A stretch of DNA of 36,799 nt from Planctomycetales bacterium (GTDB lineage Bacteria > Omnitrophota > Gorgyraeia > Aquiviventales > Aquiviventaceae): positions 1-36,799 of the forward strand of contig SBAZ01000152.1 in NCBI GenBank assembly GCA_005239935.1, read 5' to 3'. The notes under the pieces are model-generated. The model was not told the DNA's origin, searched no databases, and saw nothing but the letters and a program-made list of their open reading frames with translations. Made by a program: the position numbers and the translations under genes. How positions within the stretch are numbered: the stretch's first letter is position 1; the number at the start of each line of letters is the position of its first letter. This document shows positions 5,973-27,607 of this stretch, piece after piece.

Positions 5973-6863
5973 TCAACCGCGTCCGGCGCGCGTGCCCAGC
6001 GCGGCGGCTACGGTGCGGCCGATCGCGGCCGGGCTCTCGATGACGGTCACCCCGGCCGCCTTCAGGGTCGCCATCTTTTCCGCGGCCGTGCCCTTCCCGC
6101 CTGCGATGATCGCTCCGGCATGCCCCATGCGTTTTTCCTTGGGGGCCAGGCGCCCGGCGACAAACGCGAACACCGGCTTGCGGATGCCGGCTTTTTTGAT
6201 GAGGGCAGCGGCTTCCTCTTCTTCTGTCCCGCCGATTTCGCCAATGAGCACGATGGCGTCGGTCTGGGGGTCTGTCTCGAGCAGCGGCAGCAGGTCCGTG
6301 AAGCTGGAACCCAATACCGGGTCGCCGCCGATGCCGATGCAGGTCGACTGTCCCAGCCCGGCTTGGGTCAACTGGTACACGGCATCATAGGTGAGGGTGC
6401 CGCTGCGGGAGAGCACCGCCACCCGGCCCGGCGCGTGGATGTAGCCGGGCATGATCCCCACCTTGCAGACCCCTGGGGTAATGAGGCCTGGGCAGTTCGG
6501 TCCGATGAGCCGGGAGGCACTCCCCTGCAGCCGCCGGCGGATGCGCACCATGTCGAGCGTCGGGATGCCCTCCGTGATTGTGACGACGAGTCGGAGGCCG
6601 GCGTCCAACGCCTCGACCATGGCGTCGTACGCGAACCGGGCCGGCACAAAGATGACGGTGGCGGTAGCACCGGTGGCCTTCACCGCGTCTCGCACCGCGT
6701 TGAAGACCGGTACCCTGTGCACCTGCTGGCCGGCCTTGCCCGGCGTGACACCGCCGACCACCGCCGTGCCGTACTCCAGCATCTTCTCCGTGTGGAAGGC
6801 GCCGGCTTGGCCGGTGATGCCCTGCACGAGCACGCGGGTGTCCTTGCCGACCAGGATGCTCAT
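5973..6863 (-). CDS. sucD: Succinyl-CoA synthetase alpha subunit
   Basis: [33 protein letters not shown] and RMGHAGA (phospho-His). Confidence 0.97.
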
Positions 6864-6967
6864 CCTACCACCTGCCGCACGGCCGCTGACACGGGCTTGC
6901 CACTGGTGCGGCCGAGCGCGCTGCGCTCGGCGTGCCTTCGGCACGCCCCGGCAGGTGGTGGAATCAT
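6860..6967 (-). mobile_element. ATGA-flanked palindromic element E1 with a 35-aa bridging ORF (sucC|sucD)
   Basis: ATGA-TTCCACCACCTGCCG...[56 protein letters not shown]. Mobility is inferred. Confidence 0.75.
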
Positions 6968-8148
6968 CGGGCGAGCTCGACGACCTTCCGGGCGGCCTCT
7001 TCCAGCTCGTCGCAGGTGATGAGGTTCAGCCGCTCGGCCTGCCGGAGCAGGCGACGGCCCTCCTCGACATTCGTGCCCTGCAACCGGACGACGATCGGCA
7101 TCGTGACTTGGAGTCGCTGCGTGGCATTGAGCAGCCCCTGCGCGATCCAGTCGCAGCGCATGATGCCGCCGAAGATGTTCACGAGGATCGCCTTGACCCG
7201 GGCGTCGGCCAGGATGATCTCGAAGGCCTTGGTCACCTGGTCCACGTTGGCCCCGCCGCCGACGTCGAGGAAGTTCGCGGGCTGCCCGCCGCACAGCGTG
7301 ATGATGTCGTTCGTTGCCATGGCCAACCCGGCGCCGTTGACCAGACAGCCAATCGTCCCGCTGAGCCCAACATAGGAAATGCCAATGCGACTTGCCTTGA
7401 GCTCCAGCGGGTGCTCCTGGCTCTCGTCGCGCAGGCCGGCGAGGTCCGGGTGCCTGAAGAGCGCGTTATCGTCGAGGACAACTTTCGCGTCCACCGGCAG
7501 CAGCCGGCCGTCTTCGAGGAGCGACAGGGGATTAATCTCCACGAGCGAGGCGTCCTGCGCCTCGAAAAACCGCCAGAGCCCCTGGGCCATGCGCTGCCCC
7601 TGCTCTGCCTGGGACCCGCTCAGGCCCAGCGTGTCGGTGAGGCGCCGCGCGGCGGCGGGGGTGAGTCCTTCGGTGATCTCCAGCAGCTCCCGATGAATCG
7701 CGCTGGGCTGGGTGGCGGCCACCTCTTCGATGTCGACGCCGCCCTGCCGGCTCGCCAGGACGACGGGGGCGGCCCGGAACCGATCGATGGTGACCGCCAC
7801 ATAGAGCTCTGCGCGGGCCGCCACGCGCTCATCGATGAGCACGGCGGTTACCGGCAGCCCCTCCGGCCCTGTTTGTGTGGTGACGAGCCGCCGGCCCAGC
7901 AGGGCGCGGGCGTGCTCAGCGGCCTGCGCAGCGCTCGTCGCCACCAGGATGCCGCCGGCCTTGCCGCGGCCGCCGGCGTGGAGCTGCGCTTTGACGTTGC
8001 AGACGAACCCCTCACCGCCCCCGCACGCGGCGCGCAGCCGGTCATAGGCGCTGGCGGCCTCTTGGGGGGTCGTGGCGGGCACTCCGCGCTGGATGGGCAC
8101 TCCGGCGGCCTCGAGCAGCTGTTTGGCCTGGTATTCATGGAGCTTCAT
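6964..8148 (-). CDS. sucC: Succinyl-CoA synthetase beta subunit
   Basis: [40 protein letters not shown] and NFLDVGGG. Confidence 0.97.
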
Positions 8149-8164
8149 GAACGACGGCGCCGGG

Positions 8165-9313
8165 TTACCGGCGCTGGTCGAGCGGGACGAACCGCAGGTC
8201 CCGCGGGCCCACGTAGCTGGCCAGCGGGCGGATGAGCCGGTTGTCGGAGGCCTGCTCGAGGATGTTCGCCGACCAGCCGGCCATGCGCGCGCAGGCGAAC
8301 ATCGCCGTGAAGAGCGGCGTCGGGATGTTGAGGTAGTGCAGCAGCGAGGCGGAGTAGAAGTCCACATTGATGTACAACTGCTTGGCCTGCCACACGGCTT
8401 CCTGCAACTTGGTGGAGATGTCGAACCATTTGAGGTCCTGGTGCGCCCGGCCCAATTGCTCGGCCAGCGCCCTGAGATGCTTCGCGCGCGGATCCGCCCC
8501 CTTGTACACACGGTGTCCGAACCCCATGAAGCGCTTGTGGTCCGCCAGGGTCTTCTGCACGTAGCCCACGACGTTGTCCGGCGTGCCGATCTCCTCCAAC
8601 ATCTCCATGGCCTTGCTGTTCGCAGCACCGTGGAGCGGGCCCTTCAGCGTGCCGATGGCGGCGGTGATCGCCGAGTAGTAGTCCGACTTCGTGCCCATCA
8701 CGGTGCGGGCTGCGAAGGTGGAGGCGTTCAGGCCGTGCTCGGCCAGCAGCACGAAATACGCGTCGAGGGCCTGGACCTCGAGGGCGTCCGCCTCCCGGCC
8801 GTGCAGCAGGTACAGGAAGGTCGCGGCTTGGCTCAAGCCGCGCTTCGGCGGCAGGGGCTCCTGCCCCGCCTCGAGCCTGGCGATGGTGGCCACGAGACTG
8901 ACTGTCTTCGCGATGACCCGGACGCTCTGCCGCCGCATGGTGTCCAGCTCGTCCGAATCCCCGTCAGGATCGTGGACGCCGAGGAGCGAGATGGCACTGC
9001 GCAGCCGGGCCATCGAGCTGCTGCGGCGCGGCAGGCTGCGCAGGAACGCCAGGATCTCCGGCTCGAGCGTGCGGTGGGCCTCCAGCTGCGTCGTCCAGTC
9101 GGCCAGCTGGCCGCGCGCGGGAAGGGCGCCGAAGAGCAAGAGGTAGCTGACTTCCTCATACGTCGTGCGGCCGACCAGTTCATCGATGTGGTAGCCCCGG
9201 TAGATCAGCTGACAGTTCTTGCCGTCGACCTCCGAAATCGTCGTTTCGGAGGCGATGACGCCTTCGAGCCCCTTGTGGACTTCCGGCTTGGCTGCGGCCT
9301 CCGGCGCGCTCAT
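8165..9313 (-). CDS. gltA: Citrate synthase (short type I; 2-methylcitrate synthase not excluded)
   Basis: GLEGV, LIYRGY, AEHGLNAST, GPLHGAAN, GFGHRVYK, DPRA and NVDFYS; lies between mdh and sucC. Confidence 0.9.
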   Translation of the reverse strand: MSAPEAAAKPEVHKGLEGVIASETTISEVDGKNCQLIYRGYHIDELVGRTTYEEVSYLLLFGALPARGQLADWTTQLEAHRTLEPEILAFLRSLPRRSSSMARLRSAISLLGVHDPDGDSDELDTMRRQSVRVIAKTVSLVATIARLEAGQEPLPPKRGLSQAATFLYLLHGREADALEVQALDAYFVLLAEHGLNASTFAARTVMGTKSDYYSAITAAIGTLKGPLHGAANSKAMEMLEEIGTPDNVVGYVQKTLADHKRFMGFGHRVYKGADPRAKHLRALAEQLGRAHQDLKWFDISTKLQEAVWQAKQLYINVDFYSASLLHYLNIPTPLFTAMFACARMAGWSANILEQASDNRLIRPLASYVGPRDLRFVPLDQRR

Positions 9314-10257
9314 GAGTCGGTCGGCTGCAGGGCGGCCAGGTGTCGGGTCATCTCGGTGATCTGCTTGGCGGCGGCCACCAGCGCCTCGCGCTCCCCGGTC
9401 GTCAACGTGACCTCCACCACGCGTTCCGCGCCTCCGCGGCCCAGTTGCACCGGGACGCCGAGGCAGACGTCGTCCAACCCATACTCCCCATCGAGCCGGA
9501 CGCAGACCGGCAACACGGCATGCGTGTCCTTCAAGATCGCCGTCGCCATGGTCACGACACTGCTCGCCGGCGCATAGAAGGCGCTGCCTGTCTTGAGCAA
9601 CCGCACCAGTTCGGCCCCGCCGTCGCGCGTGCGCTGGAACAGCTGCTCCAGTTCTGCATCGCTGATCACCGCCGTGACCGCTTTGTCCCCGACCCGGATG
9701 GAGCCGCGCACCGGGACCATGAGATCCCCGTGCGAGCCCAGGACCATCGCCTGCACCTCGGTGGGGGGGACGCGCAGCCGCTGGGCCACGAAGGTTTGCA
9801 GGCGGGCGCTGTCGAGCACCCCCGCCATGCCCAGCACGCGCTGGCGCGGGAAGCGCGTGCGCTGCAGGACCAGGGCCACCATGACATCGAGCGGGTTGGT
9901 CACGACGATGACGACGGCGTCGGCGGCGTCGAGGGCGATGCGGTCGGCGATCGGGCCGACGATCGCTGCGTTGGCCGCCAGGAGGTCCTCGCGCGACATC
10001 CCCGGTTTGCGCGGCAGCCCGGCGGTGACCACCACCAGCCGGCTCCCGCTGAGGGCCCCGAGGTCCGTGGTGCCGGCGAGGTGGCTGCGAAAACCCTCGA
10101 TCGGCGCGGACTGCAGCAGATCCAGCGCCTTGCCCTGGGCCAGCCCGTCGGCAATGTCAATGAGGGTGACGTCGGCGAGCCCTTTGAGGGCGAGCAGATG
10201 CGCCGTGGTGGCGCCGACCTGCCCGGCGCCGACGACGGAGACTTTCGGCAGGGACAT
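9310..10257 (-). CDS. mdh: Malate dehydrogenase (LDH-like)
   Basis: GAGQVG, TAGLPRKPGMSREDLL, VTNPLD, GMAGVLDSAR and LGSHGD. Confidence 0.95.
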   Translation of the reverse strand: MSLPKVSVVGAGQVGATTAHLLALKGLADVTLIDIADGLAQGKALDLLQSAPIEGFRSHLAGTTDLGALSGSRLVVVTAGLPRKPGMSREDLLAANAAIVGPIADRIALDAADAVVIVVTNPLDVMVALVLQRTRFPRQRVLGMAGVLDSARLQTFVAQRLRVPPTEVQAMVLGSHGDLMVPVRGSIRVGDKAVTAVISDAELEQLFQRTRDGGAELVRLLKTGSAFYAPASSVVTMATAILKDTHAVLPVCVRLDGEYGLDDVCLGVPVQLGRGGAERVVEVTLTTGEREALVAAAKQITEMTRHLAALQPTDS

Positions 10258-10293
10258 GCCCGAGGTCAGTGGACGAGGTGACGACTGGTCTGG

Positions 10294-10566
10294 CTACACG
10301 CGGATCCCCAGCACGACGAGTGCCGTGCCTGCCACGACCCACGCCAGCCAGGTCAGCGCGGCGAGCAACCAGCGCGTCCCCAGGGCGAGGCCGGAAAACC
10401 CGCCGACATACCACGCGCGCCAGTCTTCCGTGGGGTTCAGCCGAGCCCCGACGCGCGAGTGCGTGCGCCGCGCGCCGCGGATCCGGCCGGTCGCCACCAG
10501 GCACCCAACCAGGATCGACACGCCGCCGGTCAAGACCGCCACACTCTTGACCACTTCGGGAGTCAT
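10294..10566 (-). CDS. Small hypothetical membrane protein (2-3 TM)
   Basis: 90-aa ORF with hydrophobic segments filling the pfkB-mdh gap; TGc-TACACT upstream. Confidence 0.55.
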   Translation of the reverse strand: MTPEVVKSVAVLTGGVSILVGCLVATGRIRGARRTHSRVGARLNPTEDWRAWYVGGFSGLALGTRWLLAALTWLAWVVAGTALVVLGIRV

Positions 10567-10640
10567 CGCAGACGAGAATCGTCGTGCGGCGTCAGTGTAG
10601 CAAAGGCACGCAACCCGCGCAACGTTTCCTCCCCGACCCC

Positions 10641-11579
10641 CTAGACGATCCGGGTCAGGCGCACCCGGGGACGCAGGCGCTGGACGTCTCCCCGATGGCA
10701 CAGCGTCGTCCCTGGCGTCATGGCGGCGGCAGCCCCGCACGCCACGGCGAGCCGCAGCGCCTCGGGCAGTCCGAGGTCCCGCGCGCACCCTGTCAGGAAG
10801 CCGCCCACGAACGAATCCCCGGCGCCCACCGCCGAGCGCACCCGCACGCGCGGCGGCACGGCCTGCCAGACGGCGCGCGGCACCCCGTGCGCCATGAGCG
10901 CGCCCTGGGCCCCGAGGGACAGGAGCACGACTTCCGGGCCCCGCGCGCGCAGCTGCTGCGCGGCCACCACCGCATCGGTCAGTGAACGGATCCGGCGGCC
11001 CAGCACCTCCTCGGCCTCCTGCCGATTCGGTTTCACCGCCCACGGGCGTGCCTGCAGGGCTTCGCGCAAGGCCCGGCCGGAGGTGTCCACCAGCACCCGC
11101 ACCCGGCGCCGCCGGAGGGTGCTTGTCCAGCGCCGATAGAGCGCGGCCGAGACGCCCTGCGGCAGGCTGCCGCACAGCGCCACGGCCTGCGGCGGCGGCC
11201 GCTGCCGGCACAGCGCGCGCAGCAACGCGCTGAGGGCGGCGGGCGGTACCCGCGGACCTGCCGTGTTGATTTCCGTCAGCGCCTGGGGACGGCGCGTGAT
11301 CAGCTTATAGTTGTTTCGCGTGGCCCCGGCAGCCTCCACGTAGTGGTGCCGCACGCCCATTTGCCGCAGGTGGTGGCGCAGGATGGCGCCGTCGCTGCCG
11401 CCCGCGCAGAGGTAGGCGATCGTGGCGTGGCCCAGCTCATGCGCCACGCGGGACACGTTGAGACCCTTGCCGCCCGGGTACCGGACGAACTGGGTGGCGC
11501 GGTTGAGCGCGCCGAGCCGCAGGGCCGGCAGCTCCACCCATTCGTCCAACGACGGGTTGAGCGTCACCGTCGCGATCAT
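10641..11579 (-). CDS. pfkB: 1-phosphofructokinase-family (PfkB) sugar kinase
   Basis: TVTLNPSLD, PGGKGLNVS, CGSLP, KPNRQE and SAVGAGDSF. Confidence 0.93.
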   Translation of the reverse strand: MIATVTLNPSLDEWVELPALRLGALNRATQFVRYPGGKGLNVSRVAHELGHATIAYLCAGGSDGAILRHHLRQMGVRHHYVEAAGATRNNYKLITRRPQALTEINTAGPRVPPAALSALLRALCRQRPPPQAVALCGSLPQGVSAALYRRWTSTLRRRRVRVLVDTSGRALREALQARPWAVKPNRQEAEEVLGRRIRSLTDAVVAAQQLRARGPEVVLLSLGAQGALMAHGVPRAVWQAVPPRVRVRSAVGAGDSFVGGFLTGCARDLGLPEALRLAVACGAAAAMTPGTTLCHRGDVQRLRPRVRLTRIV

Positions 11580-11722
11580 CCCACCACCTGCCGCGCGCAG
11601 CGGCCACAGGAGATCTCCACCCGGGCCGCTGCGGGCGCGGCGGGTGGGTGAACAGTGAATGCAGAGGCTAACGCGCCGCGCATCCCGCCGGTCGGCGGGA
11701 TGGGCGCAGGTGGTGGGATCAT
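11576..11722 (-). mobile_element. ATGA-flanked palindromic element E2 with a 48-aa bridging ORF (glgA|pfkB)
   Basis: ATGA-TCCCACCACCTGC...GCAGGTGGTGGG-ATGA. ORF MIPPPAPIPPTGG...RCARQVVG*. Confidence 0.75.
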
Positions 11723-13194
11723 GGCGCCACGGCCTGCCGGGTCCGTGCCTGCTCGTACACCCGGGCGTAGGCGCCGGCCGCCTGCGTCCAGGAGAAGTCG
11801 CGGGTCATCCCGTGGTGCATCAGGCGACGCCACCTCGCGGGCCTTGCAAACGCCGCGGTCGCCCGCGCGACTGCGGCCACCAGCGCCACCGGCGTGTAGG
11901 CGTCGAACACGATCCCCGTCGCGGTGCCTGCGTCCAGCGTGGCCGGGGTGAGATCAACGACCGTGTCCGCCAGCCCGCCGACGCGCCGCACGATGGGCAC
12001 CGTCCCATAGCGCATGCTGTACATCTGGTTGAGGCCGCACGGCTCAAAGCGTGAGGGCATCAGGAAGGCATCCGCCCCGGCCTCGATCTGATGCGCCAAC
12101 GCCTCATCGAAGCCGAGGCGCACCGCCACTCGATCCGGATGATGCCGGGCAGCCGCCTGCAACTGCGCCTCGTAGGACGCCGCGCCGCTGCCGAGCACGA
12201 CCAATTGGACCGGCACCGCCATCAGCTCCGCGAGGGCGGCCAGGAGCAGGTCGACGCCCTTCTGCTCGACGAGCCGCTGCACCATCCCGATGAGCAGATC
12301 CGGCCGCTCCGGCAAGCCTAGCTCGTGCTGGAGGGCGCGCTTGCACGCGGCCTTGCCGGCCGGGTCCTCGGCGGCATACCGCGCGGCCAGGTGCGAATCC
12401 GTCGCAGGATTCCAGACGTCGACGTCGATGCCATTCAAGATGCCGGTGAGGTCTTCGGCTCGCCGACGCAGCACGGCGTCCAACCCGCAGCCAAATTCCG
12501 CCGTCTGGATCTCCCGCGCGTAGGTCGGACTCACGGTCGTCAGGCGATCCGCGCTCAGGAGTCCACCTTTCAGGCAGTTCACCTGGCCGCGAAATCCCAC
12601 CCCTCCCTGCCCACGCGCGGCGGAGGGCAGCCCGGTCTGCGCGCCCTGTGCGGCGGGAAAGAGGCCCTGGTAGGCCAGGTTGTGCACGGTCAGGACGGTG
12701 GGCATGCCCTGCCAGGCGGGCATGGATCGAGCCTCGCCCCAGGCCAGATGCGCACAGACCAGGGCTGCGTGCCAGTCGTGCGCGTGCACCACATCCGGAC
12801 GCCAGTCCAGGTGCGGCATCGCGGCCAGTACTGCGCGGCAGAACAGGCTGAACCGGGCCAGGTTGTCCGGATAGTCGGTGCCGCGCGCAGGATCCTGGTA
12901 GAGGCCGTCGCGGTCAAACGCCTCCGGAGCGTCGAGCGCGTGGACGATGACCTCAGTGCCCGGCAGCAGTCCTGACCAGACGCGCACGCGCACGTCCTGC
13001 GCCCCGAACGGCGCCGTGACGACGATTTCCGTGCGGGCGAGCCCCTGGCGCGACAGACTGCGGTACGCCGGCACCAGGACGCGGACGGCATGGCCCTGGG
13101 CCGCCAGGGCCTTGCTCAGGGCCCCGGTGACATCCCCGAGCCCGCCGGTCTTGATCAGCGGGGCGAGTTCAGACGCTACGTGGAGGACGTTCAC
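11719..13194 (-). CDS. glgA: Glycogen synthase (GT5)
   Basis: KTGGLGDV, HAHDWH, TVHNLAYQG and MPSRFEPCGLNQ. Confidence 0.96.
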   Translation of the reverse strand: MNVLHVASELAPLIKTGGLGDVTGALSKALAAQGHAVRVLVPAYRSLSRQGLARTEIVVTAPFGAQDVRVRVWSGLLPGTEVIVHALDAPEAFDRDGLYQDPARGTDYPDNLARFSLFCRAVLAAMPHLDWRPDVVHAHDWHAALVCAHLAWGEARSMPAWQGMPTVLTVHNLAYQGLFPAAQGAQTGLPSAARGQGGVGFRGQVNCLKGGLLSADRLTTVSPTYAREIQTAEFGCGLDAVLRRRAEDLTGILNGIDVDVWNPATDSHLAARYAAEDPAGKAACKRALQHELGLPERPDLLIGMVQRLVEQKGVDLLLAALAELMAVPVQLVVLGSGAASYEAQLQAAARHHPDRVAVRLGFDEALAHQIEAGADAFLMPSRFEPCGLNQMYSMRYGTVPIVRRVGGLADTVVDLTPATLDAGTATGIVFDAYTPVALVAAVARATAAFARPARWRRLMHHGMTRDFSWTQAAGAYARVYEQARTRQAVAP

Positions 13195-13233
13195 GGGAGA
13201 ACGAGCGGCCGTGCGGCGGTGCGGCGGTGCGGC

Positions 13234-14829
13234 TCACGCGCCGGAAGGCGCGTAGACACGGTAGTCCAGGAAGGGGAAACAGTTGTCCGTTGTTTCGAGA
13301 CTTGTCAGCCAGCCATCCTCGAGGCGCTGGGCCTGTAACCCGTCATGGAGACGGTTGAACCGCGCCACATGGTCCTGGATCCGGCGGTACGCGTACCCGG
13401 TGTGGGTGCCGGTCTTCAGGATGAAGGGCCAGTCCGAGGCTTGGGCCAGCAGAAGCTCCCGCGCCATCTGGTTGAGGGTCCGCCGCTGCAGGGCATTGGG
13501 CTGGGGGAACTGCCGGGCCGCGGCGACCATCCGGTCCGCCAGGGTGTGCACGTGGCGGTAGATCCAATCATTGGCGCCGTTGAGCCAGACCTCGCTGTAG
13601 CCGTTGTAGCCCCAGCTGGAGAGGGAGGGCACCAGGCGCTGGTTGACGGGATAGTGGCGGAGGTAGTCGGACGGGGCGATCAACTCGATCGTCTGCTGAT
13701 CGACATGGGCCTTCCGGATGAGAAACTCCAGCCACTCCGGCCCCTCGAACCACCAGTGGCCGAAGAGCTCGGCGTCGTACGGGCTGATGATGATCGGCGC
13801 GCGGTCCATGACGGTCCGCAGGAACCCCACTTGCTGCTCGCGGTTGAAGAGGAAATTGCCGGCATGCGCGGCCGCCTGCTCCAGCGCCCGGTCCGGATCG
13901 TAGGGCTGTTTGTCATCGGTCTTGCCGGTAATCCGGTAGTACTTGATGCCCGTATTCGTGCGCTGGCCGTCGCCGTTGAGGTAGGGCCGCACGTAGTCGT
14001 GGTCGAGGTCGTAGCCGATATCCCGATAGAACTCGCGGTACAGGAAATCGCCGGGGTAGCCTTCCTCCGCGCTCCAGACGCTCTTCGACGACTCGAGGTC
14101 GCGTCCGAACGCCGCGACGCCGCTCGGACAGATGGCCGGCGCATAGACGCCGTACTTCGGCCGCGGCGACCCGAACAGGAGGCCGTGCGCGTCCGTCAGG
14201 AAGTAGCGGATGCCGAATGCCTTGAGGAACGCATCGTGCCCCGGCTGGTAGCCGCACTCCGGCAGCCAGAAGCCCTCCGGGCGCCGCCCGAAGGCGTGCT
14301 CGAAGGCCTGCACCCCAACCGCGATCTGCGCGCGCACCGCCGTCGGATTGATCTCGAGGAGCGGCAGGAACCCGTGCGTCGCGCAGGAGGCAATGGGCTC
14401 CAGGCTGCCCTGCTCCGCCAGGGCGCGAAAGGCGCCGATGAGGTCCTGCCGGTAGCCGTCCGTGTAGCGCTGCCGCGCCGTCGTCAGGCGGTGATGGTAG
14501 AAGTACGCCAGCCGATGGAACGGCGGCTGCCAGCGCGTGCGCTCGATTTCCTTGCCCGCGAGCTCAATGAGCCCGTCGAGGTGCCGCAGGTAGCGCGCCT
14601 GCAGGAGGGGATCGGCCAGCATCGCCAGCAGCGTCGGGGTAAACGACATCGTGATGCGGAACGGAACCCGGTCGTTCACCAGGCGCTCGAACCGCTCGAG
14701 GAGCGGGAGATACGTTTCGGTGATGGCCTCGAAGAGCCACCGCTCCTCGAGGAACGACTCGTGCTCCGGGTGGCGCACGAACGGCAGGTGCGTGTGCAGG
14801 ACGAGCGCGAGGAAACCCTGGCGCGTCAT
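13234..14829 (-). CDS. GH57 1,4-alpha-glucan branching enzyme-like protein (DUF1957 domain)
   Basis: LHTHLPFVRHPE, EAITETYLPL, FWLPECGY, YDAELFGHWWFEG and LAQASDWPF. Confidence 0.93.
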   Translation of the reverse strand: MTRQGFLALVLHTHLPFVRHPEHESFLEERWLFEAITETYLPLLERFERLVNDRVPFRITMSFTPTLLAMLADPLLQARYLRHLDGLIELAGKEIERTRWQPPFHRLAYFYHHRLTTARQRYTDGYRQDLIGAFRALAEQGSLEPIASCATHGFLPLLEINPTAVRAQIAVGVQAFEHAFGRRPEGFWLPECGYQPGHDAFLKAFGIRYFLTDAHGLLFGSPRPKYGVYAPAICPSGVAAFGRDLESSKSVWSAEEGYPGDFLYREFYRDIGYDLDHDYVRPYLNGDGQRTNTGIKYYRITGKTDDKQPYDPDRALEQAAAHAGNFLFNREQQVGFLRTVMDRAPIIISPYDAELFGHWWFEGPEWLEFLIRKAHVDQQTIELIAPSDYLRHYPVNQRLVPSLSSWGYNGYSEVWLNGANDWIYRHVHTLADRMVAAARQFPQPNALQRRTLNQMARELLLAQASDWPFILKTGTHTGYAYRRIQDHVARFNRLHDGLQAQRLEDGWLTSLETTDNCFPFLDYRVYAPSGA

Positions 14830-14975
14830 CCCCCCACCCGCTGATGTCCCGCCCACGGGCGGGACGCGCGGCGGGATACAGCCGCGCGTGTCCAATCCCT
14901 CCGCCCGCCGCGCACGCAACGGCCCCCTCGGCCCTTCACCATGGTGCCGTTGCGGACAGCTGGTGGGGGGATCAT
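14826..14975 (-). mobile_element. ATGA-flanked palindromic element E3 with a 49-aa bridging ORF (DUF4912|GH57)
   Basis: ATGA-TCCCCCCACCAGCTG...CAGCGGGTGGGGGG-ATGA. ORF MIPPPAVRNGTMVKGRGG...AGHQRVGG*, translated by hand. Confidence 0.7.
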
Positions 14976-18127: not shown

Positions 18128-18239
18128 GGGGACAGGCCCCCTGCGGGGCCCAGTCCCCTTCACGGCCAACAACCTCGGCCCGGGGTCAGGCTCCGCGCGT
18201 AAGCTTCCACCGCGTCGCGCGCGGACCCAGACCCCTTCA
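18128..18239. repeat. Pair of REP-like hairpins with GGGGWCAGGC...CCCAGWCCCC-TTCA ends
   Basis: Hairpins at 18128-18158 and 18182-18235, each followed by TTCA. Confidence 0.6.
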
Positions 18240-18254
18240 AGGCCAGGTACTTGA

Positions 18255-20718: not shown

Positions 20719-20722
20719 GGGG

Positions 20723-20932
20723 TCAGCGCTCGCGCCTCAGGTCCAGGGTGGCGGAGGTCTCGGCTTCGAGCGCGTAGCCGCGCTCGCGCGCCCAAGCGGT
20801 TAGATCCCGCCGCACGTCCTCGGCGTTGTAGCAAATTCGCAGGGCCTGTCCAGCCGCGAGACGGGCGGCGGCGCGGGCGACCAGTGCGAGGGCCTGCGCG
20901 CAGACCATGTCTCGGACATCCACCGTCGACAC
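20723..20932 (-). CDS. TusA-like sulfur carrier (can also be read from ATG 21094 as an E4 fusion)
   Basis: [12 protein letters not shown]...LAAGQALRI...[11 protein letters not shown]; GTG start directly after the element end. Confidence 0.75.
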
Positions 20933-21094
20933 CCCACCACCTGCTGGTGCCACGCCGCAGGCGTGGCGGGGCCGGGCGCATCCCGGCTGGCTCGGCATGT
21001 GCCGGCCCGGGTGACCCCCGGGTCGGCCGTGCGGTTCGCCACGTGGGGTGTGCGTGTCATGAGTGGGTCGCCCTCCAGCAGGTGGTGGGGTCAT
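20929..21094 (-). mobile_element. Palindromic element E4 (JAMM gene|tusA-like), ORF fused in frame to the downstream gene
   Basis: ATGA-CCCCACCACCTGCTGG...CCAGCAGGTGGTGGG-GTGT; the interior aligns with E5. Confidence 0.75.
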
Positions 21095-21555
21095 GCCCTG
21101 CCACCGGCCGACCGACCCGGCGCGACATCTTCCAGCGTCCAGGGCTCCTCGGTGACCGTGGCCCCGTCAATGTGCCAGGTCCGCAGTTCGGGCGTGAGCG
21201 CCTGCCGCAGCGACACAACGACGTACGCCACCTCCGGCGAAATCGCCAGGGTCACGTCCACGGACGAGGGCCGAGCCTCGGTGGCCGTGTGCGAGTGGTA
21301 GATGCCCACGAGGATCTGATCCCGCTGGCGCATCTGCTTCTCGACCATGAGCTGCTCTTTGGGATCCATGGAATAGCCGATCGGGCTGTCGTCCACGTTG
21401 CGCATGGGGTAGACGGCCATGACCGCCCGCTGGCGTCCTGTCGGCGCGACCCGCATGCCGGCCAAGAGACCGCACGCCTCCTTGGGATACGCGCTGCGGC
21501 AGTGCGCGATGATCTGGTCGTAGGCCACGCGCGGAAGCACCAGCGGACTGTCCAT
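21091..21555 (-). CDS. M67/JAMM (Mec-like) metallopeptidase
   Basis: PKEACGLL...YHSHT..ARPSSVD JAMM motif. Confidence 0.92.
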   Translation of the reverse strand: MDSPLVLPRVAYDQIIAHCRSAYPKEACGLLAGMRVAPTGRQRAVMAVYPMRNVDDSPIGYSMDPKEQLMVEKQMRQRDQILVGIYHSHTATEARPSSVDVTLAISPEVAYVVVSLRQALTPELRTWHIDGATVTEEPWTLEDVAPGRSAGGRA

Positions 21556-22355
21556 CAGCCGACCAGTCCCCAGCGCACTTGCACTTCATACTCCAGCCGC
21601 TTGAAGATCAATCCGTCCACGACAATGCCCACCGCGGCGATCAGCAACATGAGGGCGAGGAGCTGATCCAGTTGCTGCGCTTTCGCCACCTGGCTCAGCC
21701 GCTGCCCCAGGCCGCTCACCGAGGTCAATAACTCGCCGGCCATCAACGCGCGCCACCCAAAAGCCCACGCCAACCGCAATCCGCCCACAATCTTGGGAAC
21801 CGCTGCGGGCACCACGACGAACCAGAAATACCTCGGCCCGCGGGCCCCCATGGTGCGGGCGGCGTGACGGATGATGGGCGGCACCTGGCGAATCCCGGTA
21901 TCGGTCTCCACGATCACGATCCCCGCGGCCCCCAACAGCACGGTGAACACCACCGCCTGCTCGGTCATGCCGAACCACAGGATCGCCAGCGGGACCCACG
22001 CCGCCCCAGGGATGCCGTGCATCGCCACCGCGAGAGAGCCCAGGAGCTGGTCAACCAGCGGCAGCCGGCCCAGCATGATGCCACCCCCGACGCCGAGCAC
22101 CACGACCAGGCTGTACCCGACTGCCATCCGTCGAGCGCTCCCGGCGAGGGCCTGCAGGAACTCCGGATCCCGGAAATCGCGCGACCAGACCGGCGCAATC
22201 TCCGAGAACAAGGACGGCCACGCGGGTGAGCAGAACGCGCCCACCTCCCACACCACGATAAACAGGGCGAACGCCTGCCAGGTGAGAAACGAATACCCCC
22301 TCGGGAAGATGGTGCGAACCAGCCGACGCAGCATGCCGAGAGGCCTCGCGGCCAT
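21555..22355 (-). CDS. NitT/TauT/SsuC-type ABC permease
   Basis: IPGAAWVPLAILWFG, AARTMGA and LRLAWAFGWRALMAGELL. Confidence 0.92.
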   Translation of the reverse strand: MAARPLGMLRRLVRTIFPRGYSFLTWQAFALFIVVWEVGAFCSPAWPSLFSEIAPVWSRDFRDPEFLQALAGSARRMAVGYSLVVVLGVGGGIMLGRLPLVDQLLGSLAVAMHGIPGAAWVPLAILWFGMTEQAVVFTVLLGAAGIVIVETDTGIRQVPPIIRHAARTMGARGPRYFWFVVVPAAVPKIVGGLRLAWAFGWRALMAGELLTSVSGLGQRLSQVAKAQQLDQLLALMLLIAAVGIVVDGLIFKRLEYEVQVRWGLVG

Positions 22356-23195
22356 TTAGATGTGCATGCCCGTGGCCTGGTCGGGAGGCAGGCTGTGCTG
22401 CGCCTCGGGGAAGTGGACCGTCTCTCCGAGCTCTTCCCGGAAGACCTTCTCGACTTCTTCGCCGAGGATGCCGAGAATCGCGTGCTGGTGGGCTTGCAGC
22501 GCGTGGTCCTCGGCGTGCCGTGGGCGCGGCACGGTGATCGCTTGGACGTCGCGGATGCGGCCCGGGCGCGAGGAGATCACATACACGCGGTCCGCCAATC
22601 CCGTGGCCTCGCGTACATTGTGCGTGACAAACAGGATCGTCGGGCGGGCCAGTTCCCAGATTTCCAGCAGTTCGTTCTGCAGCACCGCGCGCGTTTGGGC
22701 ATCCAGTGCCGCGAAGGGCTCGTCCAGCAACAGGATGGACGGCTGCAGCACCAGAGCGCGCGCGATCGCAACGCGCTGCTTCATGCCGCCCGAGAGTTGA
22801 TGCGGGTACGCGTGACTGAACTTCGACAGATGCACCAATTTGATGTACTCGAGTGCCCTCGCACGCCGCGTGATGGCCGGTATGCCGGCCATGCGCAGAC
22901 CGAATTCCACATTGCCGAGGACATTGAGCCAGGGAAACAGGGCCGCGTCTTGGAACACCACGATGCGGCTGGGGTCCGGGCCGTGCACCGGACGGCCTTC
23001 GACCGCCACCTCCCCGCGGTCCGGGCGGTCCAGACCAGCAATCAGGTTGATGATGGTGCTCTTGCCGCACCCGGACGGGCCGAGGAGGCACACGAACTCC
23101 CCCTCGCGGACCGTGAGGTTGATATCGTTCAGCACCTCCACGCGTCCGCCATTCTGTGGGAAGGATTTGAAGACGTGCTTCAGCTCGACGTGCAT
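22356..23195 (-). CDS. NitT/TauT/SsuB-type ABC ATPase
   Basis: GPSGCGKST, LSGGMKQR, LLLDEPF and FVTHN. Confidence 0.95.
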   Translation of the reverse strand: MHVELKHVFKSFPQNGGRVEVLNDINLTVREGEFVCLLGPSGCGKSTIINLIAGLDRPDRGEVAVEGRPVHGPDPSRIVVFQDAALFPWLNVLGNVEFGLRMAGIPAITRRARALEYIKLVHLSKFSHAYPHQLSGGMKQRVAIARALVLQPSILLLDEPFAALDAQTRAVLQNELLEIWELARPTILFVTHNVREATGLADRVYVISSRPGRIRDVQAITVPRPRHAEDHALQAHQHAILGILGEEVEKVFREELGETVHFPEAQHSLPPDQATGMHI

Positions 23196-23261
23196 GGGTG
23201 CGCCGGGACATGTCCGCCCGCTCGAGTCACGCAACGGCGGTCGGGAAACGTCCCGCTGCTC

Positions 23262-24413
23262 CTAGACTTGTGCGGGCTTCCGCATGGCCTCAATGAGGAC
23301 CGCGGCGACCTCGGGTCGCGAGACCTCTGGGGGAGGCGGCGTGCCGGCCTGCAGCAGTTCTCGGACCCTGGTCCCGCTCAGACTCACGTGTTTGTCGGCC
23401 GGATGGGGGCAGGTCTTCGCCGTCACCATCCCGCCGCACACGGTGCAGAACGCGGCATTCTCGAACCGCAGCGGCGTGATGCCGAGCTCTGCCGGGTCGA
23501 AGTCGTCGAAGATGCGCTGCGCATCGTACGTGCCATAGAACTTGCCCACGCCGGCATGGTCGCGGCCGACAATGAAGTGGGTGCACCCGTAATTCTTGCG
23601 GATGAGCGCATGGAACACCGCCTCGCGCGGGCCGCCGTAGCGCATGGAGGCCGGGTTGACCGCCAGCACCACGCGGTCCTTCGGGAAGTAGTGCGCCAGG
23701 AGCGCCTCATAGCTTCTCATGCGCACCGCCGCCGGCACATCATCCCCCTTGGTTTCCCCGATGATGGGATGCAGCAGCATGCCGTCGCAGAGTTCGAGGG
23801 CGCACTTCTGCAGGTACTCATGGGCCCGGTGGATCGGGTTGCGCGTCTGGAACGCCACCACCCGCCGCCAGCCGCGTTCCTCGAAGAGGCGCCGGGTATC
23901 CTTCGGATCCAGGCGGTACGGGAGGAATGTGGCGGGCGTTGGGCGGCTGATCACGCTGATCCGGCCCCCGACAGAGACCTCGCCGGTGGCCTGCAGGCGC
24001 TGGACGGCCGGGTGGCTCGAGTCAGTCGTGCCGAAGACCTGCTGGGCCTCAGCGGTCTTGTCCGGCGTGTACGTCTCAGACACGTGGAGTATTGCGACCA
24101 CGGCGCCGTTTGCCCGCAGCGCCACGTCGCCTTGCAGGGCGGCGGCCTGCGTCTTCGAGACGGCCAGTGTGACGGGAATGGTCCACACGAGCCCGCTGGC
24201 AAGGCGGCGTTCGCCCACGACGCGCTCATAGTCCGCCCGGCCCATAAATCCCTCGAGTGGACTGAAGCCGCCGATGGCGATCATCTCGACATCCGACAGC
24301 CCCCAGGCGTCCAGTTCTATGGCCGGCAGCGACTCCGCCCTGGCCGCGAGGGTGTCTCGTTCGCGTCCCTCGAGGATTCGATTCACCAGCGTCCCGCCGT
24401 GCGGTGCGATCAT
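23262..24413 (-). CDS. sat: Sulfate adenylyltransferase
   Basis: [33 protein letters not shown] and LSGTRVRE. Confidence 0.97.
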
Positions 24414-24450
24414 GCGTCCGACCCCTCTCGCGTCACGTGCCCGTGTGCAC

Positions 24451-24478
24451 AAAACGCCCCGCCGAGCGGCGGGGCGTT
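24451..24478 (-). terminator. Terminator-like hairpin upstream of sat
   Basis: AACGCCCCGCCG-CT-CGGCGGGGCGTT followed by TT on the minus strand. Confidence 0.5.
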
Positions 24479-24481
24479 GCA

Positions 24482-24553
24482 AGTCTCACATATATGACTA
24501 GTGTTGTCAATATCTAAAACGAAACAGCCACATATATCCTACTTATTGACTCT
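24482..24553 (-). promoter_or_regulatory. sat operon promoter with overlapping Rrf2 (IscR/CymR)-like operator candidates
   Basis: TTGACA (24510-24505)-N17-GAGACT (24487-24482). An imperfect palindrome ATATGAC-N7-GTCAATAT covers the -35, and CACATATAT is repeated 42 bp apart. Confidence 0.6.
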
Positions 24554-25931
24554 GACTACTAGAGCCCGCCGGCTCGCCGAGCCGGCCCAGCGACTTGAGC
24601 CAGGCCTTGATGAGCTTCTCCTGCCCCAGGTCGGTCGGCCGGTAGTACACGGTGGACGTCGGGATATAGGCCTGTTCGACGTGGTGCCTGGCGTAGTGGT
24701 GCGCATACTTGTACCCCACGCCCCGGCCCAGCTGCTTGGCGCTTCGGTAACTGGCATCCTTGAGATCTGAGGGGACCTCGAGCGTGCGGCCGGCTTGCAC
24801 ATCGGCGGTCGCCGCCTCCAAGCCCAGGTACGCCGCGTTGGATTTGGGCGCACTGGCCACATAGACCGTAGCCTCGGCCAGCGGGATGCGTCCCTCCGGC
24901 AACCCCACGTATTCGAGGGCGTGCATCGCCGCCGTCGCCACCACGAGTGCTTGCGGATCGGCCATCCCCACGTCCTCGGCCGCGCAGATGACGATCCGGC
25001 GCGCGATGAAGCGCGGATCCTCGCCGGCGTAGAGCATCTTCGCCAGCCAATAGAGTGCCGCGTGCGGATCCGAGCCGCGCATGGACTTGATGAAGGCGCT
25101 GATCGTGTCGTAGTGCGCGTCCCCGGCCTGGTCGTACACGACGGCCTTCTTCTGGATGGACGACTCGACCGCCGCCAGCGTCACCCGCACCACCCCGTCA
25201 GGACCCTTGGCTGTCGTGAGGGCCGCCACCTCCAGCGCGTTCAAGGCCCGTCGTGCGTCGCCGTCGCACACACGGGCCACATGGGCCAGTGCGTCCTCAT
25301 CGACATGTGCGCGCTGCTGCCCCAGGCCGCGCGCCGAGTCCGCCAGTGCCCGGCGCAGGAGGACGATGATGTCCGCCTCGCTGAGCGGCTTGAACTCGCA
25401 GACGATCGAGCGCGAGAGGAGTGCCGGGGCCAGCGCGAAGAAGGGATTGAACGTCGTCGCCCCGATGAGGATGGGGTTGCCCTGCTCGACGTCCGGCATG
25501 AGGACGTCCTGCTGAGCCTTGTTGAAGCGGTGGATCTCGTCGATGAAGAGCAGGGTGCGCTGTCCCTGCAGCCGGGCCCGCTCCGTGGCGCGCCGGAGTG
25601 TGTCGCGCACCTCCGCCACGCCGGCGGCCGTGGCGTTCAGCTGCTCAACGTGGGCGCGCGTGGCGGAGGCGATGAGGTGGGCGAGCGCGGTCTTTCCCGT
25701 CCCGGGTGGGCCGTACAGGATGACGGAGGTGATGCGGTCCGCCTCAATGGCGCGCCGCAGCAGCTGCCCCGGCCCGACGATATGCGCCTGGCCGGCGAAT
25801 TCATCCAGCGTGCGCGGCCGCATCCGGACCGCCAGGGGCTGGGGCACTGAGGCGGCTGGGGTCTCTGGCACCCCAAACAGGTCTGGGCCAGGTCGGGAGA
25901 CGGTACGAGGTACCGAACGGCGTGCGCCCAT
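24543..25931 (-). CDS. rarA: Replication-associated recombination protein A (RarA/MgsA)
   Basis: PLAVRMRP, GPPGTGKT, FIDEIHRFNKAQQD and HYDTISAFIKSMRGSD. Confidence 0.97.
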   Translation of the reverse strand: MGARRSVPRTVSRPGPDLFGVPETPAASVPQPLAVRMRPRTLDEFAGQAHIVGPGQLLRRAIEADRITSVILYGPPGTGKTALAHLIASATRAHVEQLNATAAGVAEVRDTLRRATERARLQGQRTLLFIDEIHRFNKAQQDVLMPDVEQGNPILIGATTFNPFFALAPALLSRSIVCEFKPLSEADIIVLLRRALADSARGLGQQRAHVDEDALAHVARVCDGDARRALNALEVAALTTAKGPDGVVRVTLAAVESSIQKKAVVYDQAGDAHYDTISAFIKSMRGSDPHAALYWLAKMLYAGEDPRFIARRIVICAAEDVGMADPQALVVATAAMHALEYVGLPEGRIPLAEATVYVASAPKSNAAYLGLEAATADVQAGRTLEVPSDLKDASYRSAKQLGRGVGYKYAHHYARHHVEQAYIPTSTVYYRPTDLGQEKLIKAWLKSLGRLGEPAGSSSQSQ

Positions 25932-25959
25932 GAGGGTCCTGGTGGCGGTGAGAGAGAAC

Positions 25960-26129
25960 GAGCCCCACGGCTGCCGTGGACTCGAAGAGGCGTGAACCCC
26001 AACCTCAAGGGGGTACTCGCTCCGGCGTGGGGCGCAATGCCCTGACAGGGGCCCACGCGTCGGAAGCCGAGTTCCCGTCTGACTCGTGTTGGCTCACGTC
26101 ATACGAACCACACGCACAGCGCAGGGCTC
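25960..26129 (-). ncRNA. ssrS: 6S RNA
   Basis: About 170 nt with complementary ends (GAGCCCT...GGGGCTC) and 6S-like internal motifs (TGAGCCAAC, ACGGGAAC, TACCCCCTTG..GGGGTTCA, ACGGCAG). It has its own promoter and lies upstream of rarA. Not confirmed by a covariance search. Confidence 0.8.
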
Positions 26130-26135
26130 AGCGTC

Positions 26136-26164
26136 AGACTAGCACCGGCCCGGTGGGTTGACAA
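26136..26164 (-). promoter_or_regulatory. Sigma70-type promoter of 6S RNA/rarA
   Basis: TTGTCA (26164-26159)-N17-TAGTCT (26141-26136) with a TG extension. Confidence 0.7.
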
Positions 26165-26170
26165 GCAAAT

Positions 26171-26881
26171 TCACCCCGGCGGCGGCTGGCCAATGTCGTG
26201 GATGCCGCATTCCGTCTTGTCCTGTCCGGCCCAACGCCCGGAGCGCGGGTCGTTCGGATCCACGGGGCGCTGGGTGCAGGGCCAGCACCCGATGGACGTG
26301 TAGCCCTGGGCCCACAGCGGATGATAGGGCAGATTGTGCTCGGCCATGTAGGCGTGCACCTGCTTCGCCGTCCACGTGGCCAGCGGGGCGACCTTCGTCA
26401 CGCCGGTCTCGAGGACCTGCACGACGGGGGTCGCCGCGCGCGTCGGCGCCTCGTCGCGGCGCAGACCCGTGATCCAGCACCGCACGCCCCGCAGGGCGCG
26501 TTCCATCGCCTCGACCTTGTACGGGCTGCAGCAAAAATCGGGATGGCCCGGCTGCTGCCCCTCGTGCTCCTTGAGGAACGCGGGCACATCGAGTCGGCTT
26601 TTGACGACCGTGAGGTGCAGCTGGAAGCGCTGGCGCAGGGCTTCCAAGAACTGGTAGGTTTCCGGGAACAGCAGCCCGGTATCCACGGTGCGGACGTTGA
26701 TCGCCGGATCGACCTGGAGCGCCAGATGGATCAGCGCGGCGCTGTCCGTGCCGAAGGAGGTGGTCAGCGTCACGTCCGGGCGGAAGGTCTCCACCGCCCA
26801 GCGGATGATGTCCGTCGGGTGCGCGGCCTCGAAGCGGGCGTTGAGCCGCGTTACCTCATCGGGCGTGGGTGCCGGGCTCAT
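26171..26881 (-). CDS. cysH: PAPS/APS reductase, Fe-S-motif type
   Basis: TSFG, DTGLLFPET, FCC, WITGLRR, GYTSIGCWPCT and RSGRW...KTECGIH. Confidence 0.95.
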   Translation of the reverse strand: MSPAPTPDEVTRLNARFEAAHPTDIIRWAVETFRPDVTLTTSFGTDSAALIHLALQVDPAINVRTVDTGLLFPETYQFLEALRQRFQLHLTVVKSRLDVPAFLKEHEGQQPGHPDFCCSPYKVEAMERALRGVRCWITGLRRDEAPTRAATPVVQVLETGVTKVAPLATWTAKQVHAYMAEHNLPYHPLWAQGYTSIGCWPCTQRPVDPNDPRSGRWAGQDKTECGIHDIGQPPPG

Positions 26882-27446
26882 GGGGGGAGGGCGTCGCCGA
26901 GGCCTTCGGGATCCACGCGTGCTGCTCCAGGTAGCTGAGGATCGCCTGCGCGCTCTCCTCGACGCGCTGCGTGCCGGAATCCACCAGGATGTCCGGATTG
27001 AGCGGCGCCTCGTAGGGGTCGGAGACGCCCGTGAAGTTCTTGAGCTCGCCGGCCAGCGCCTTCTTGTACAGCCCTTTGACGTCGCGCTTGGTCAGTGCTT
27101 CGATGGAGCACTTGACGTACACTTCGATGAAGTGGCCGATCTCCTTCCGGTTGTGGTCGCGCACCTCCCGGTAGGGCGAGATGGCCGCGCTGATCGCCAC
27201 CACCCCGTTGCGCGTGAGCAGCTTGCACACGTAGCCGATGCGCTTAATGTTCGTGTCGCGATCTTCTTTGCTGAAGCCCAGGCCCTTGCTGAGATTCGTG
27301 CGCACCTCATCCCCGTCAAGAATTTCCACCCGGAGCCCGCGGTGGCGCAGCTCGTCGGCGATGCGGGTCGCGAGCGTGGACTTCCCCGCCCCGGAGAGCC
27401 CGGTGAACCAGAGGGTAAACCCTTTGTCGTGCTGGCCGGATGTCAT
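26856..27446 (-). CDS. cysC: Adenylyl-sulfate kinase
   Basis: WFTGLSGAGKST, LDGDEVR, RDVKGLYKKA and FTGVSDPYE. Confidence 0.97.
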   Translation of the reverse strand: MTSGQHDKGFTLWFTGLSGAGKSTLATRIADELRHRGLRVEILDGDEVRTNLSKGLGFSKEDRDTNIKRIGYVCKLLTRNGVVAISAAISPYREVRDHNRKEIGHFIEVYVKCSIEALTKRDVKGLYKKALAGELKNFTGVSDPYEAPLNPDILVDSGTQRVEESAQAILSYLEQHAWIPKASATPSPHEPGTHAR

Positions 27447-27607
27447 CCCACCACCTGCTGATGCCACGCCGTAGGCATGGCGGGACCGGCCACATCATGG
27501 CTGGTAGGGCGCGGGCCGGCCCGGGCGACCCCCCGGTCGGCTTCGCGGAATACTAGGTCTAGGCGACTTGTCGTTGCTGGGTCGCCCCCAGCAGGTGGTG
27601 GGATCAT
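27443..27607 (-). mobile_element. ATGA-flanked palindromic element E5 with a 54-aa ORF, between the probable original SD and cysC
   Basis: CAGGAGtccc-ATGA-TCCCACCACCTGCTG...CAGCAGGTGGTGGG-ATGA. ORF MIPPPAGGDPATTSRLDLVF...[10 protein letters not shown], translated by hand. Confidence 0.75.

Follow-up and report, generated by a model that had tools for sequence, protein, structure and literature searches.

The stretch of DNA analysed here, which we call the window, is a 36,799-nt contig (C41) of a metagenome-assembled genome (MAG) from an uncultured groundwater bacterium of the phylum Omnitrophota (1.63 Mb in 156 contigs, 68% G+C, 92% complete; G000 below). Five short palindromic elements, E1 to E5, lie along its minus strand at the starts of genes (Table 1), and these elements, their relatives elsewhere and a longer copy that has the same kind of ends and encodes a GIY-YIG nuclease, probably their autonomous partner, are the subject of this report. 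All five had been listed in an earlier note on this DNA and all five were recovered, with upstream stop codons and downstream start codons arranged as the note had claimed. Searching the window with the 12-mer CCCACCACCTGC and allowing up to two mismatches returned 25 matches against 7.57 ± 2.73 in shuffled sequences (0 of 100 shuffles reached 25), and the six exact matches make up the inverted pairs of E2, E4 and E5. ATGA stands on both sides of E1, E2, E3 and E5, again as described, E4 has ATGA on its left and GTGT on its right, and the five unoccupied ATGA overlaps named earlier (TCAT on the forward strand) are all present.

Table 1. Elements, TGA copies and other features of the window; neighbouring genes of E1 to E5 are named by Pfam
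Feature	Position	Strand	Remarks
E1	6863..6963	-	99-nt core with a T and an A at its ends; sucC/sucD junction
E1 mini-open reading frame	ATG 6967-6965 to TGA 6862-6860	-	peptide ends ...RQVVG*
E1 left TGA copy	6964..6966	-	sucC stop codon, within ATGA 6967-6964
E1 right TGA copy	6860..6862	-	its TG completes the sucD start codon
sucD	5973..6863	-	gene downstream of E1; start codon rebuilt by E1
E2	11579..11718	-	138-nt class, inverted relative to class majority; starch synthase (glgA-like) / PfkB kinase
E2 TGA copies	11719-11721 and 11576-11578	-	
E3	14829..14971	-	141-nt member of E2's class, sense orientation, CCCCCC/GGGGGG end variant
E3 neighbours		-	DUF4912 gene upstream, GH57 branching enzyme gene downstream
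E3 TGA copies	14972-14974 and 14826-14828	-	
E4	20932..21090	-	157-nt core: 156 class plus 1-nt insertion, length not a multiple of 3
E4 left TGA	21091-21093	-	stop codon of JAB-domain gene
E4 right copy	20929-20931	-	decayed to TGT; TusA starts at GTG 20932
E5	27446..27603	-	156-nt class; start of adenosine 5'-phosphosulfate (APS) kinase gene (cysC)
E5 TGA copies	27604-27606 and 27443-27445	-	
6S RNA gene	25958-26130	-	Rfam, 66.6 bits
Two tRNA genes	36421-36494 and 36532-36617	-	Rfam

The start codon of sucD (ATG 6863-6861) consists of the last A of E1 and the TG of the right TGA copy. E3 carries degenerate ends (CCCCCCACC.../...GGTGGGGGG), the terminal pair of E4 is C...G, and the DNA upstream of E5 is non-coding, with AGGAG ahead of the left ATG. 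What the earlier note says of interiors and orientation had to be revised. The interiors, which it had called mostly unrelated, fall into classes, E2 and E3 belonging to one and E4 and E5 to another, and all five elements consist of a closing stem and three hairpins; nor are all elements in the mRNA orientation, E2 being inverted relative to E3.

When end motifs were paired across G000 at spacings of 60-420 bp, 73 candidates were obtained and 51 were kept, E3 having been entered into the set by hand; the 22 discarded candidates had three mismatches, or at least two mismatches and no TGA/TCA flank. The suspected multi-copy family resembling miniature inverted-repeat transposable elements (MITEs) therefore exists, with about 50 copies in this genome, 50 of them 79-163 bp long and one, the only copy with a Pfam domain, of 315 bp. 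The ends read [T/C]CCCACCACCTGC...GCAGGTGGTGGG[A/G]. Flanks were long enough for scoring in 49 of the 51 copies, and 40 of these have NTGA on the left (ATGA 32, GTGA 4, CTGA 3, TTGA 1) and [A/G]TGA on the right (ATGA 34, GTGA 6). In these 40 the base that follows the left TGA and the one that precedes the right TGA form a pair (T/A 32, C/G 6, other 2). Because this outermost pair co-varies, we take the element to be [T/C]CCC...GGG[A/G] and the duplication to be TGA; the target-site duplication proposed earlier is thus real, but it is 3 bp long and not the ATGA first suggested, since the adjoining base belongs to the repeat. The first base of the downstream start codon, A or G, is accordingly contributed by the element as its final base. 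Two off-target copies, C31:5186 (flanked TGT/TGT) and C6:1471 (flanked TAA/TAA), carry altered flanks that match each other, which shows that the sequence is truly duplicated and not built into the element.

The hairpins and the fixed adjoining tetranucleotide had also raised a reading as IS200/IS605-like insertion sequences (IS) or as repetitive extragenic palindromes with their associated transposases (REP/RAYT). This reading was set aside without a search for RAYT or HUH genes, on the grounds that the two ends are genuine inverted repeats and that both flanks change together in the off-target copies. At the gathering threshold Rfam returned for the window only the 6S RNA and the two tRNAs and no match to an element, searching it with five full-length loci at E ≤ 0.1 gave one chance-level match only, and there are no tandem arrays at the elements.

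Empty ATGA sites had been predicted at the orthologous junctions of relatives, and they were found at sucC/sucD, glgA/pfkB and DUF4912/GH57, all genomes compared being MAGs. At sucC/sucD the empty overlap is seen in L024, L030 and L038, and the site is occupied in L020 by an element with the unusual TTCC end of E1 and a different, longer interior. At glgA/pfkB, L095, L086 and L104 are empty and L081 is occupied, with the ACGC end variant of that genome. At the site of E3, L115 and others retain ATGA or TGATG, and L122 holds a degenerate element with E3's GGGGGG variant. From occupied sites common to other genera, with altered interiors, we conclude that some insertions are old and have been kept while their interiors turned over. 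The family therefore has these features of MITEs: short length, many copies, no transposase gene, terminal inverted repeats, a duplication, and empty sites in relatives.

A palindrome of a different kind occupies the sucC/sucD junction in L016, L021, L025, L027 and L032 and the glgA/pfkB junction in L083, L090, L092 and L099. It is built of three to four tandem heptamers (e.g., GGCTCAA, GATTTTG), a short spacer and inverted heptamers, the heptamer varying between genomes, and it too often lies between two ATGA. These heptamer palindromes look like a second family of junction-seeking elements.

In G000, 39 of 40 copies lie exactly at a gene start, in that a coding-like open reading frame (ORF) begins at the right [A/G]TG. 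At 32 of the 40 a coding-like ORF also ends at the left TGA, placing the copy at a stop/start junction, and seven, including E5, are preceded by non-coding DNA, the insertion there occupying a first gene's start codon. The genome contains 10,817 ATGA tetramers against at most 244 unoccupied coding-like ATGA overlaps, a figure probably inflated by shadow ORFs, and apart from ATGA the only feature of the flanks is a stretch rich in G at positions -7 to -12, as expected ahead of start codons. From these counts and the flank pattern we infer that the bias toward gene starts is mostly the product of selection and not of targeting. With its right end the element brings in a purine stretch resembling AGGTGG, 5 nt ahead of the start codon; because no 16S rRNA 3' end was found in the MAG for a check of the anti-Shine-Dalgarno sequence, we treat this stretch as a putative ribosome-binding site only. 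As a practical matter, the elements give rise to dozens of spurious small ORFs, displace annotated gene starts in these MAGs and interrupt assemblies, several copies standing at contig ends.

The core length is divisible by three in 37 of the 40 copies with intact flanks (lengths 99, 102, 126, 132, 135, 138, 141, 156 and 315 vs 79, 137 and 152) compared with three of the nine remaining copies, counts that overstate independence because copies of one length class share ancestry. Read from the left ATG, all 37 reach the right TGA without an internal stop codon; in the +2 frame only 23 of them are open. The element has neither a start nor a stop codon of its own: it borrows the host's ATG at its left and stops at the duplicated TGA at its right, and its last base (A/G) together with TG rebuilds the downstream start codon. 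This arrangement points to a translation relay like that of MIRUs (interspersed repetitive units of mycobacteria, 40-100 bp long and familiar chiefly in tandem arrays), in which ribosomes would be handed on through the element. In L101 (G009), where the starch synthase gene stops just upstream of the pfkB start, its last residues are ...GQGVG* (from CCAGGGGGTGGGATGA); what looks like a lone right end has here been joined in frame to the C terminus of the enzyme.

Copies of the three main classes (132 nt, 135-142 nt and 156-157 nt) all fold as a closing stem, formed by the 12-16-bp terminal inverted repeats, that encloses three hairpins. For 22 copies of the 135-142 class RNAalifold gave 35 pairs with 97.0% of cells paired, and in 12 of these pairs both partners have changed, whereas shuffling gave 3.8 ± 1.4 (12 was reached in 0 of 500) and sliding the partners gave 1-6; the closing stem contributes 14 pairs, 95.7% paired across the 22 copies. 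The 1406 stem cells include 1329 Watson-Crick pairs, 26 G-U and 30 A-C. Since G-U does not exceed A-C, the constraint looks like palindromy of DNA and not like a strand-specific RNA fold, and an RNA-specific fold was dropped from consideration. The short hairpin lies beside the downstream gene in 33 of 38 copies of the three classes, and the other five, including E2, are inverted.

In the 132 class two loops have exactly constant length and nearly no common sequence. Two pairs of neighbouring copies in G000, C82:7745-7876 with C82:11658-11789 and C46:7757-7894 with C46:8844-8981, each have an identical loop 1 and an unrelated loop 2, as if loops were exchanged as modules between nearby copies. 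That loops are guides or copies of other DNA was also considered and rejected for want of any sizeable match in the genome: with self matches and the loop common to the C82 pair excluded, the best blastn-short matches of 18 loops of the 132 class against the whole genome were 11-17 nt long, with E of at least 0.056.

The 315-bp copy (C42:997-1311 of G000) has a 315-nt core with the ends CCCACCACCTGCCGG / CCGGCAGGTGGTGGG and ATGA/GTGA flanks, and its relay ORF encodes a 107-residue GIY-YIG protein (Pfam PF01541, E 5.7e-11, 43 bits vs a cut-off of 22.6). This is the single Pfam domain in the protein, the rest of the C-terminal part being one helix (residues 83-98). A profile search of the PDB matched the UPF0213 structures 1zg2 (E 1e-14) and 1ywl (E 1e-11) and Slx1 (E 2e-7), and Foldseek ranked 1zg2 first and Slx1 next, with the catalytic domain of I-TevI as a weak match at rank 25; according to PDB titles, Slx1 recognises and processes branched DNA. 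The AlphaFold model has a mean predicted local distance difference test score (pLDDT) of 74.5, and residues 1-11 and 101-107, encoded by the repeats, fall below 50. All 11 sequences compared retain Y19, Y30, G32, R39, R40, H44 and E76, and the tyrosines of GIY and YIG, the arginine, the histidine and the glutamate we take to be catalytic.

A tblastn-type search detected full-length counterparts, 46-61% identical, in 11 further genera of the family; a word-index protein search gave seven relatives of the nuclease and nothing beyond the genome searches. Among the loci listed, 10 of 11 open with ATGA followed by the left repeat and most close with the right repeat followed by TGA, the left end of the element in L048 being degenerate. 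The ends differ between genomes yet stay complementary, as in CCCACGCCCTGGCAC/GTGCCAGGGCGTGGG and CCCACCCCCTGCGA/TCGCAGGGGGTGGG. An alignment of nine full-length elements has the same architecture as the short copies: a 16-bp closing stem (99% paired, 7 compensatory pairs), a hairpin 1 spanning 106 nt (4 compensatory pairs), a hairpin 2 of 172 nt and a short hairpin 3. This form of about 0.32 kb thus carries a nuclease of 106-131 residues whose coding sequence occupies the loops of the first two hairpins and, in part, the stems, whereas the short forms (79-160 bp) have short loops and no nuclease. The ORFs flanking the 11 loci do not match one another (all-against-all blastp, E ≤ 1e-5), so the contexts of the nuclease elements differ. 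A ratio of nonsynonymous to synonymous substitution rates (dN/dS) of 0.09-0.43 in the 28 pairs with computable dS indicates that the nuclease is under purifying selection.

Two of these elements from different genera, L049:1501-1824 and L051:66-389, are 97.2% identical over 324 nt and have unrelated flanks; of their nine differences none is synonymous in the 90 core codons compared. As the sucCD loci of the same two genomes are only 74-79% identical, recent horizontal transfer is suggested. Head-to-tail elements were also observed, in the order short copy, nuclease element, short copy (L055:1498-1890 and its flanks; also L202, downstream of the element). In such runs each element starts on the (A/G)TGA rebuilt by the previous one, and each insertion thus regenerates its own target.

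The earlier note had proposed a non-autonomous family with no transposase in the window. The short copies indeed contain no nuclease, and the likely partner is the GIY-YIG gene on another contig: the nuclease-bearing copies are probably the autonomous partner of the short ones, which they would mobilise if the enzyme is active as its sequence predicts. Left ends of the form TGA-Y-CCC-M-C-S-M-CCTG are present in 29 of 34 other genomes of the family, and a reversed control pattern gave one hit. Among the ends listed, the dominant variant of the short copies is that of the resident nuclease element in G000 (ACCA), G014 (ACCC, 23/27), G005 (ACGC, 16/27) and G045 (ACGC, 8/17).

Beyond the family, the nuclease profile matches in 180 of 300 other sampled Omnitrophota genomes at E ≤ 1e-12 (181/301 with G000), with up to eight matches per genome. 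Only a few of these matches cover the repeat-encoded N terminus, and many have in-frame stops and so look like decaying selfish genes. In G111, G112, G214, G240 and G256, which belong to other families and to another class and are in part A+T-rich, the match starts at residues 1-3, and all five genes are flanked by ATGA + TCCCA[C/T]CACC...GGTG[A/G]TGGGA + TGA. This end motif is present in all five genomes (1-28 copies) and in only 25 of 300 genomes overall. More distant small GIY-YIG genes in L205, L206 and L209 lie between related CCCC(N)CACC.../...GGTG(N)GGGG repeats. We consider it fairly probable that these sequences form a superfamily of very small elements, presumably mobile and so far seen only in Omnitrophota.

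The explanation that we favour, with moderate confidence, is that these are palindromic elements inserting at TGA, translated by relay and mobilised by the GIY-YIG nuclease that they encode. Ribosomes would pass from the upstream gene to the ORF of the element and on to the downstream gene, which would keep an insertion nearly harmless and allow the nuclease to be translated although the element supplies neither promoter nor ribosome-binding site for it. Since the PDB titles have Slx1 processing branched DNA, the four-way scaffold may be the substrate of the nuclease, which would recognise and cut the four-way-junction DNA of the scaffold, the TGA target, or both, and so mobilise full-length and short copies alike. 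Integration would fall to host repair, either by filling in a 3-nt staggered break or by microhomology-templated copying. Insertions elsewhere would disrupt genes or leave the nuclease untranslated, giving selection for gene starts.

Several observations weigh against this explanation. We know of no GIY-YIG nuclease that joins strands; these enzymes cut, and for that reason integration would have to rely on host repair. The nuclease element of G003 carries a minority end variant (2/12 ends), G010 (73% complete) has 26 ends and no nuclease match, G012 has a nuclease element and no other end, and there is only one close full-length match (E ≤ 1e-20) per genome. The divisible-by-three rule is weaker in three other genomes, holding for 31 of 47 intact-flank copies among 60 regions fetched (G014 12/15, G010 9/17, G005 10/15), and a recurrent class there of 76, 79 or 85 nt (1 mod 3) places the left ATG in the downstream gene's frame, which would extend that gene's product at the N terminus. 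Identity between copies is 84-96% in paired and 37-44% in unpaired columns, a pattern for which simple decay of transposed copies does not account and which may reflect gene conversion, palindrome-templated correction or template switching during copying. Contigs from four DNA runs of one study, two of them probably from the source sample and none an RNA run, showed no joint that skips an element exactly and no transposition event. Joints inside elements (11604>11688, 20956>21076) are best explained by further copies whose ends are the same, and this check is evidence neither way. Finally, as all genomes are MAGs, repeats are under-assembled and the copy numbers are lower bounds.

In the first competing explanation the short copies are ordinary MITEs of a conventional transposase (DDE or other) missing from the fragmented assemblies, and the GIY-YIG gene is a passenger lodged in one copy's loops, perhaps as a selfish nuclease gene. 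IS copies are often lost from MAGs, a 3-bp duplication beside inverted repeats is typical of cut-and-paste transposases, and the deviating end variant of G003 would fit, as would G010 and G019, both with ends and no nuclease match. In G000, however, we found no end pair 700-2500 bp apart with element-like flanks and saw no classical IS with these ends. The nuclease, moreover, recurs in the same ends and scaffold in 11 other genera (12 genomes with G000) and in other classes too, it is under purifying selection, and its end variants tend to follow the ones that short copies of the same genome carry; in a passenger one would not expect such an association to persist over 35-64% protein identity. 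We consider a missing transposase unlikely.

Lower still we place a homing-like spread, in which the nuclease would break an empty (A)TGA site and repair would copy a resident element by way of ATGA microhomology, template switches producing mosaics. Such copying would explain why copies are bracketed by the same 3-4-nt sequence, why the C82 and C46 neighbours share one loop module only and why stems are homogenised and loops are not, and it would demand of GIY-YIG enzymes only the nuclease activity for which we know them, not strand transfer. A microhomology of 3-4 nt is very short for templated repair, however, and the unique loops have no source in the genome, as the short best matches given above attest; the present data do not separate this model from excision and insertion.

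We think it improbable that the elements are vertically inherited regulatory devices of the host, structured intercistronic RNAs acting in coupling, mRNA stability or processing, and not mobile. Their place inside operons at translation junctions, the purine stretch ahead of the start codon and the old insertions shared across genera (L020, L122) would suit such a role. It is contradicted by presence and absence at orthologous junctions, by some 50 copies with duplicated flanks at unrelated genes, by strict Watson-Crick stems that, lacking a G-U excess, fit DNA palindromes, by the inversion of 5 of 22 copies of one class and by the absence of an Rfam match. That the mini-ORFs are genes of a small-protein family (MIPPPA...QVVG) with variable middles is, despite the frame open in 37 of 37 intact-flank, divisible-by-three copies, hardly credible, for the conserved N and C termini are translated inverted repeats, conservation tracks base-pairing and not codons, the corresponding residues of the nuclease model have low pLDDT, and inverted copies give different peptides.

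Although the earlier note recognised no described family with this target, MIRUs offer a functional precedent. According to the excerpts of two accounts, MIRUs insert at start codons within operons and have an internal ORF that overlaps the flanking genes by 4 nt (PMC12548453), have tetranucleotide direct repeats at filled sites and empty sites in relatives (PMC3184786), and number about 40-50 copies per genome (PMC12548453, PMC3184786). By these partial descriptions, the likeness to our elements extends to start-codon insertion, the 4-nt overlapping internal ORF, direct repeats, empty sites and copy number. MIRUs differ in belonging to another phylum, and the elements described here are single copies with a four-way palindrome scaffold and 12-16-bp inverted repeats; moreover, the excerpted accounts name no enzyme that moves MIRUs (PMC12548453, PMC3184786), whereas here a nuclease gene lies within the same ends. 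Some bacterial repeats, in the excerpt of one of these accounts, carry ORFs fused in frame with host genes (PMC3184786).

Bacterial MITEs (Correia/NEMIS, ERIC, RUP) and the Rickettsia palindromic elements are likewise short, multi-copy sequences with inverted repeats and short duplications. To our knowledge, known MITEs derive from IS elements with DDE transposases and are not confined to start codons; the long form here encodes only a GIY-YIG nuclease, which is not an established transposase although its element shares the ends of the short copies, and the element borrows the host ATG. The GIY-YIG homing endonuclease genes, intron-borne or free-standing (T4 Seg, I-TevI), resemble the long form in being selfish nuclease genes between host genes. 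Homing enzymes have a separate DNA-binding domain and copy themselves into a cognate allele by homologous recombination, whereas here we find a catalytic domain only, many unrelated sites, inverted repeats, a 3-bp duplication and non-coding derivatives. UPF0213 (YhbQ-like) proteins and Slx1 are the closest by sequence profile and fold. Slx1 requires Slx4 and has a RING domain, which the nuclease here lacks, and neither UPF0213 nor Slx1 is described as part of a mobile element in the literature found. A full-text literature search, judged from titles and abstract openings, gave no inverted-repeat element encoding only a GIY-YIG protein and no such scaffold.

A start-codon relay, as in MIRUs, and MITE-like behaviour were thus known already; the nuclease-only long form and its scaffold are without a description that we found and would constitute a new class if the nuclease were shown to move the elements. 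We put forward only tentatively, as somewhat short of an even chance, that they are a new class of prokaryotic transposable element, whose sole protein is an Slx1/UPF0213-type nuclease coded in the loops of its own four-way-junction substrate and which lives on the translational coupling of its host. If so, the long form, at about 0.32 kb, would be among the smallest autonomous DNA elements known and would stand outside the known transposase families. It would also suggest how MIRU-like start-codon repeats move, and a function for the widespread small UPF0213 GIY-YIG genes; the literature found gives UPF0213 proteins no role, and the profile matches in 181 of 301 sampled Omnitrophota genomes. 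Repeats that enter at start codons and preserve translational coupling are not known outside MIRUs; now that this lifestyle has a candidate enzyme and a DNA scaffold that is defined, its mechanism can be put to the test at the bench.

Two further observations concern tRNA genes. A second small GIY-YIG gene of G000 (L001:1350-1858, contig C133; Pfam E 3.4e-17) lies directly upstream of tRNA-Gln(CTG), between perfect 24-nt direct repeats of the 5' part of tRNA-Gln that are 432 nt apart, and looks like an insertion into a tRNA gene that rebuilt the gene. In the window itself a 69-nt tandem repeat (36639-36799; 2.3 copies, 97% matches) reaches the contig end beside the two tRNA genes, and its unit includes a stretch resembling a tRNA T-arm, GGAATCGAACC.

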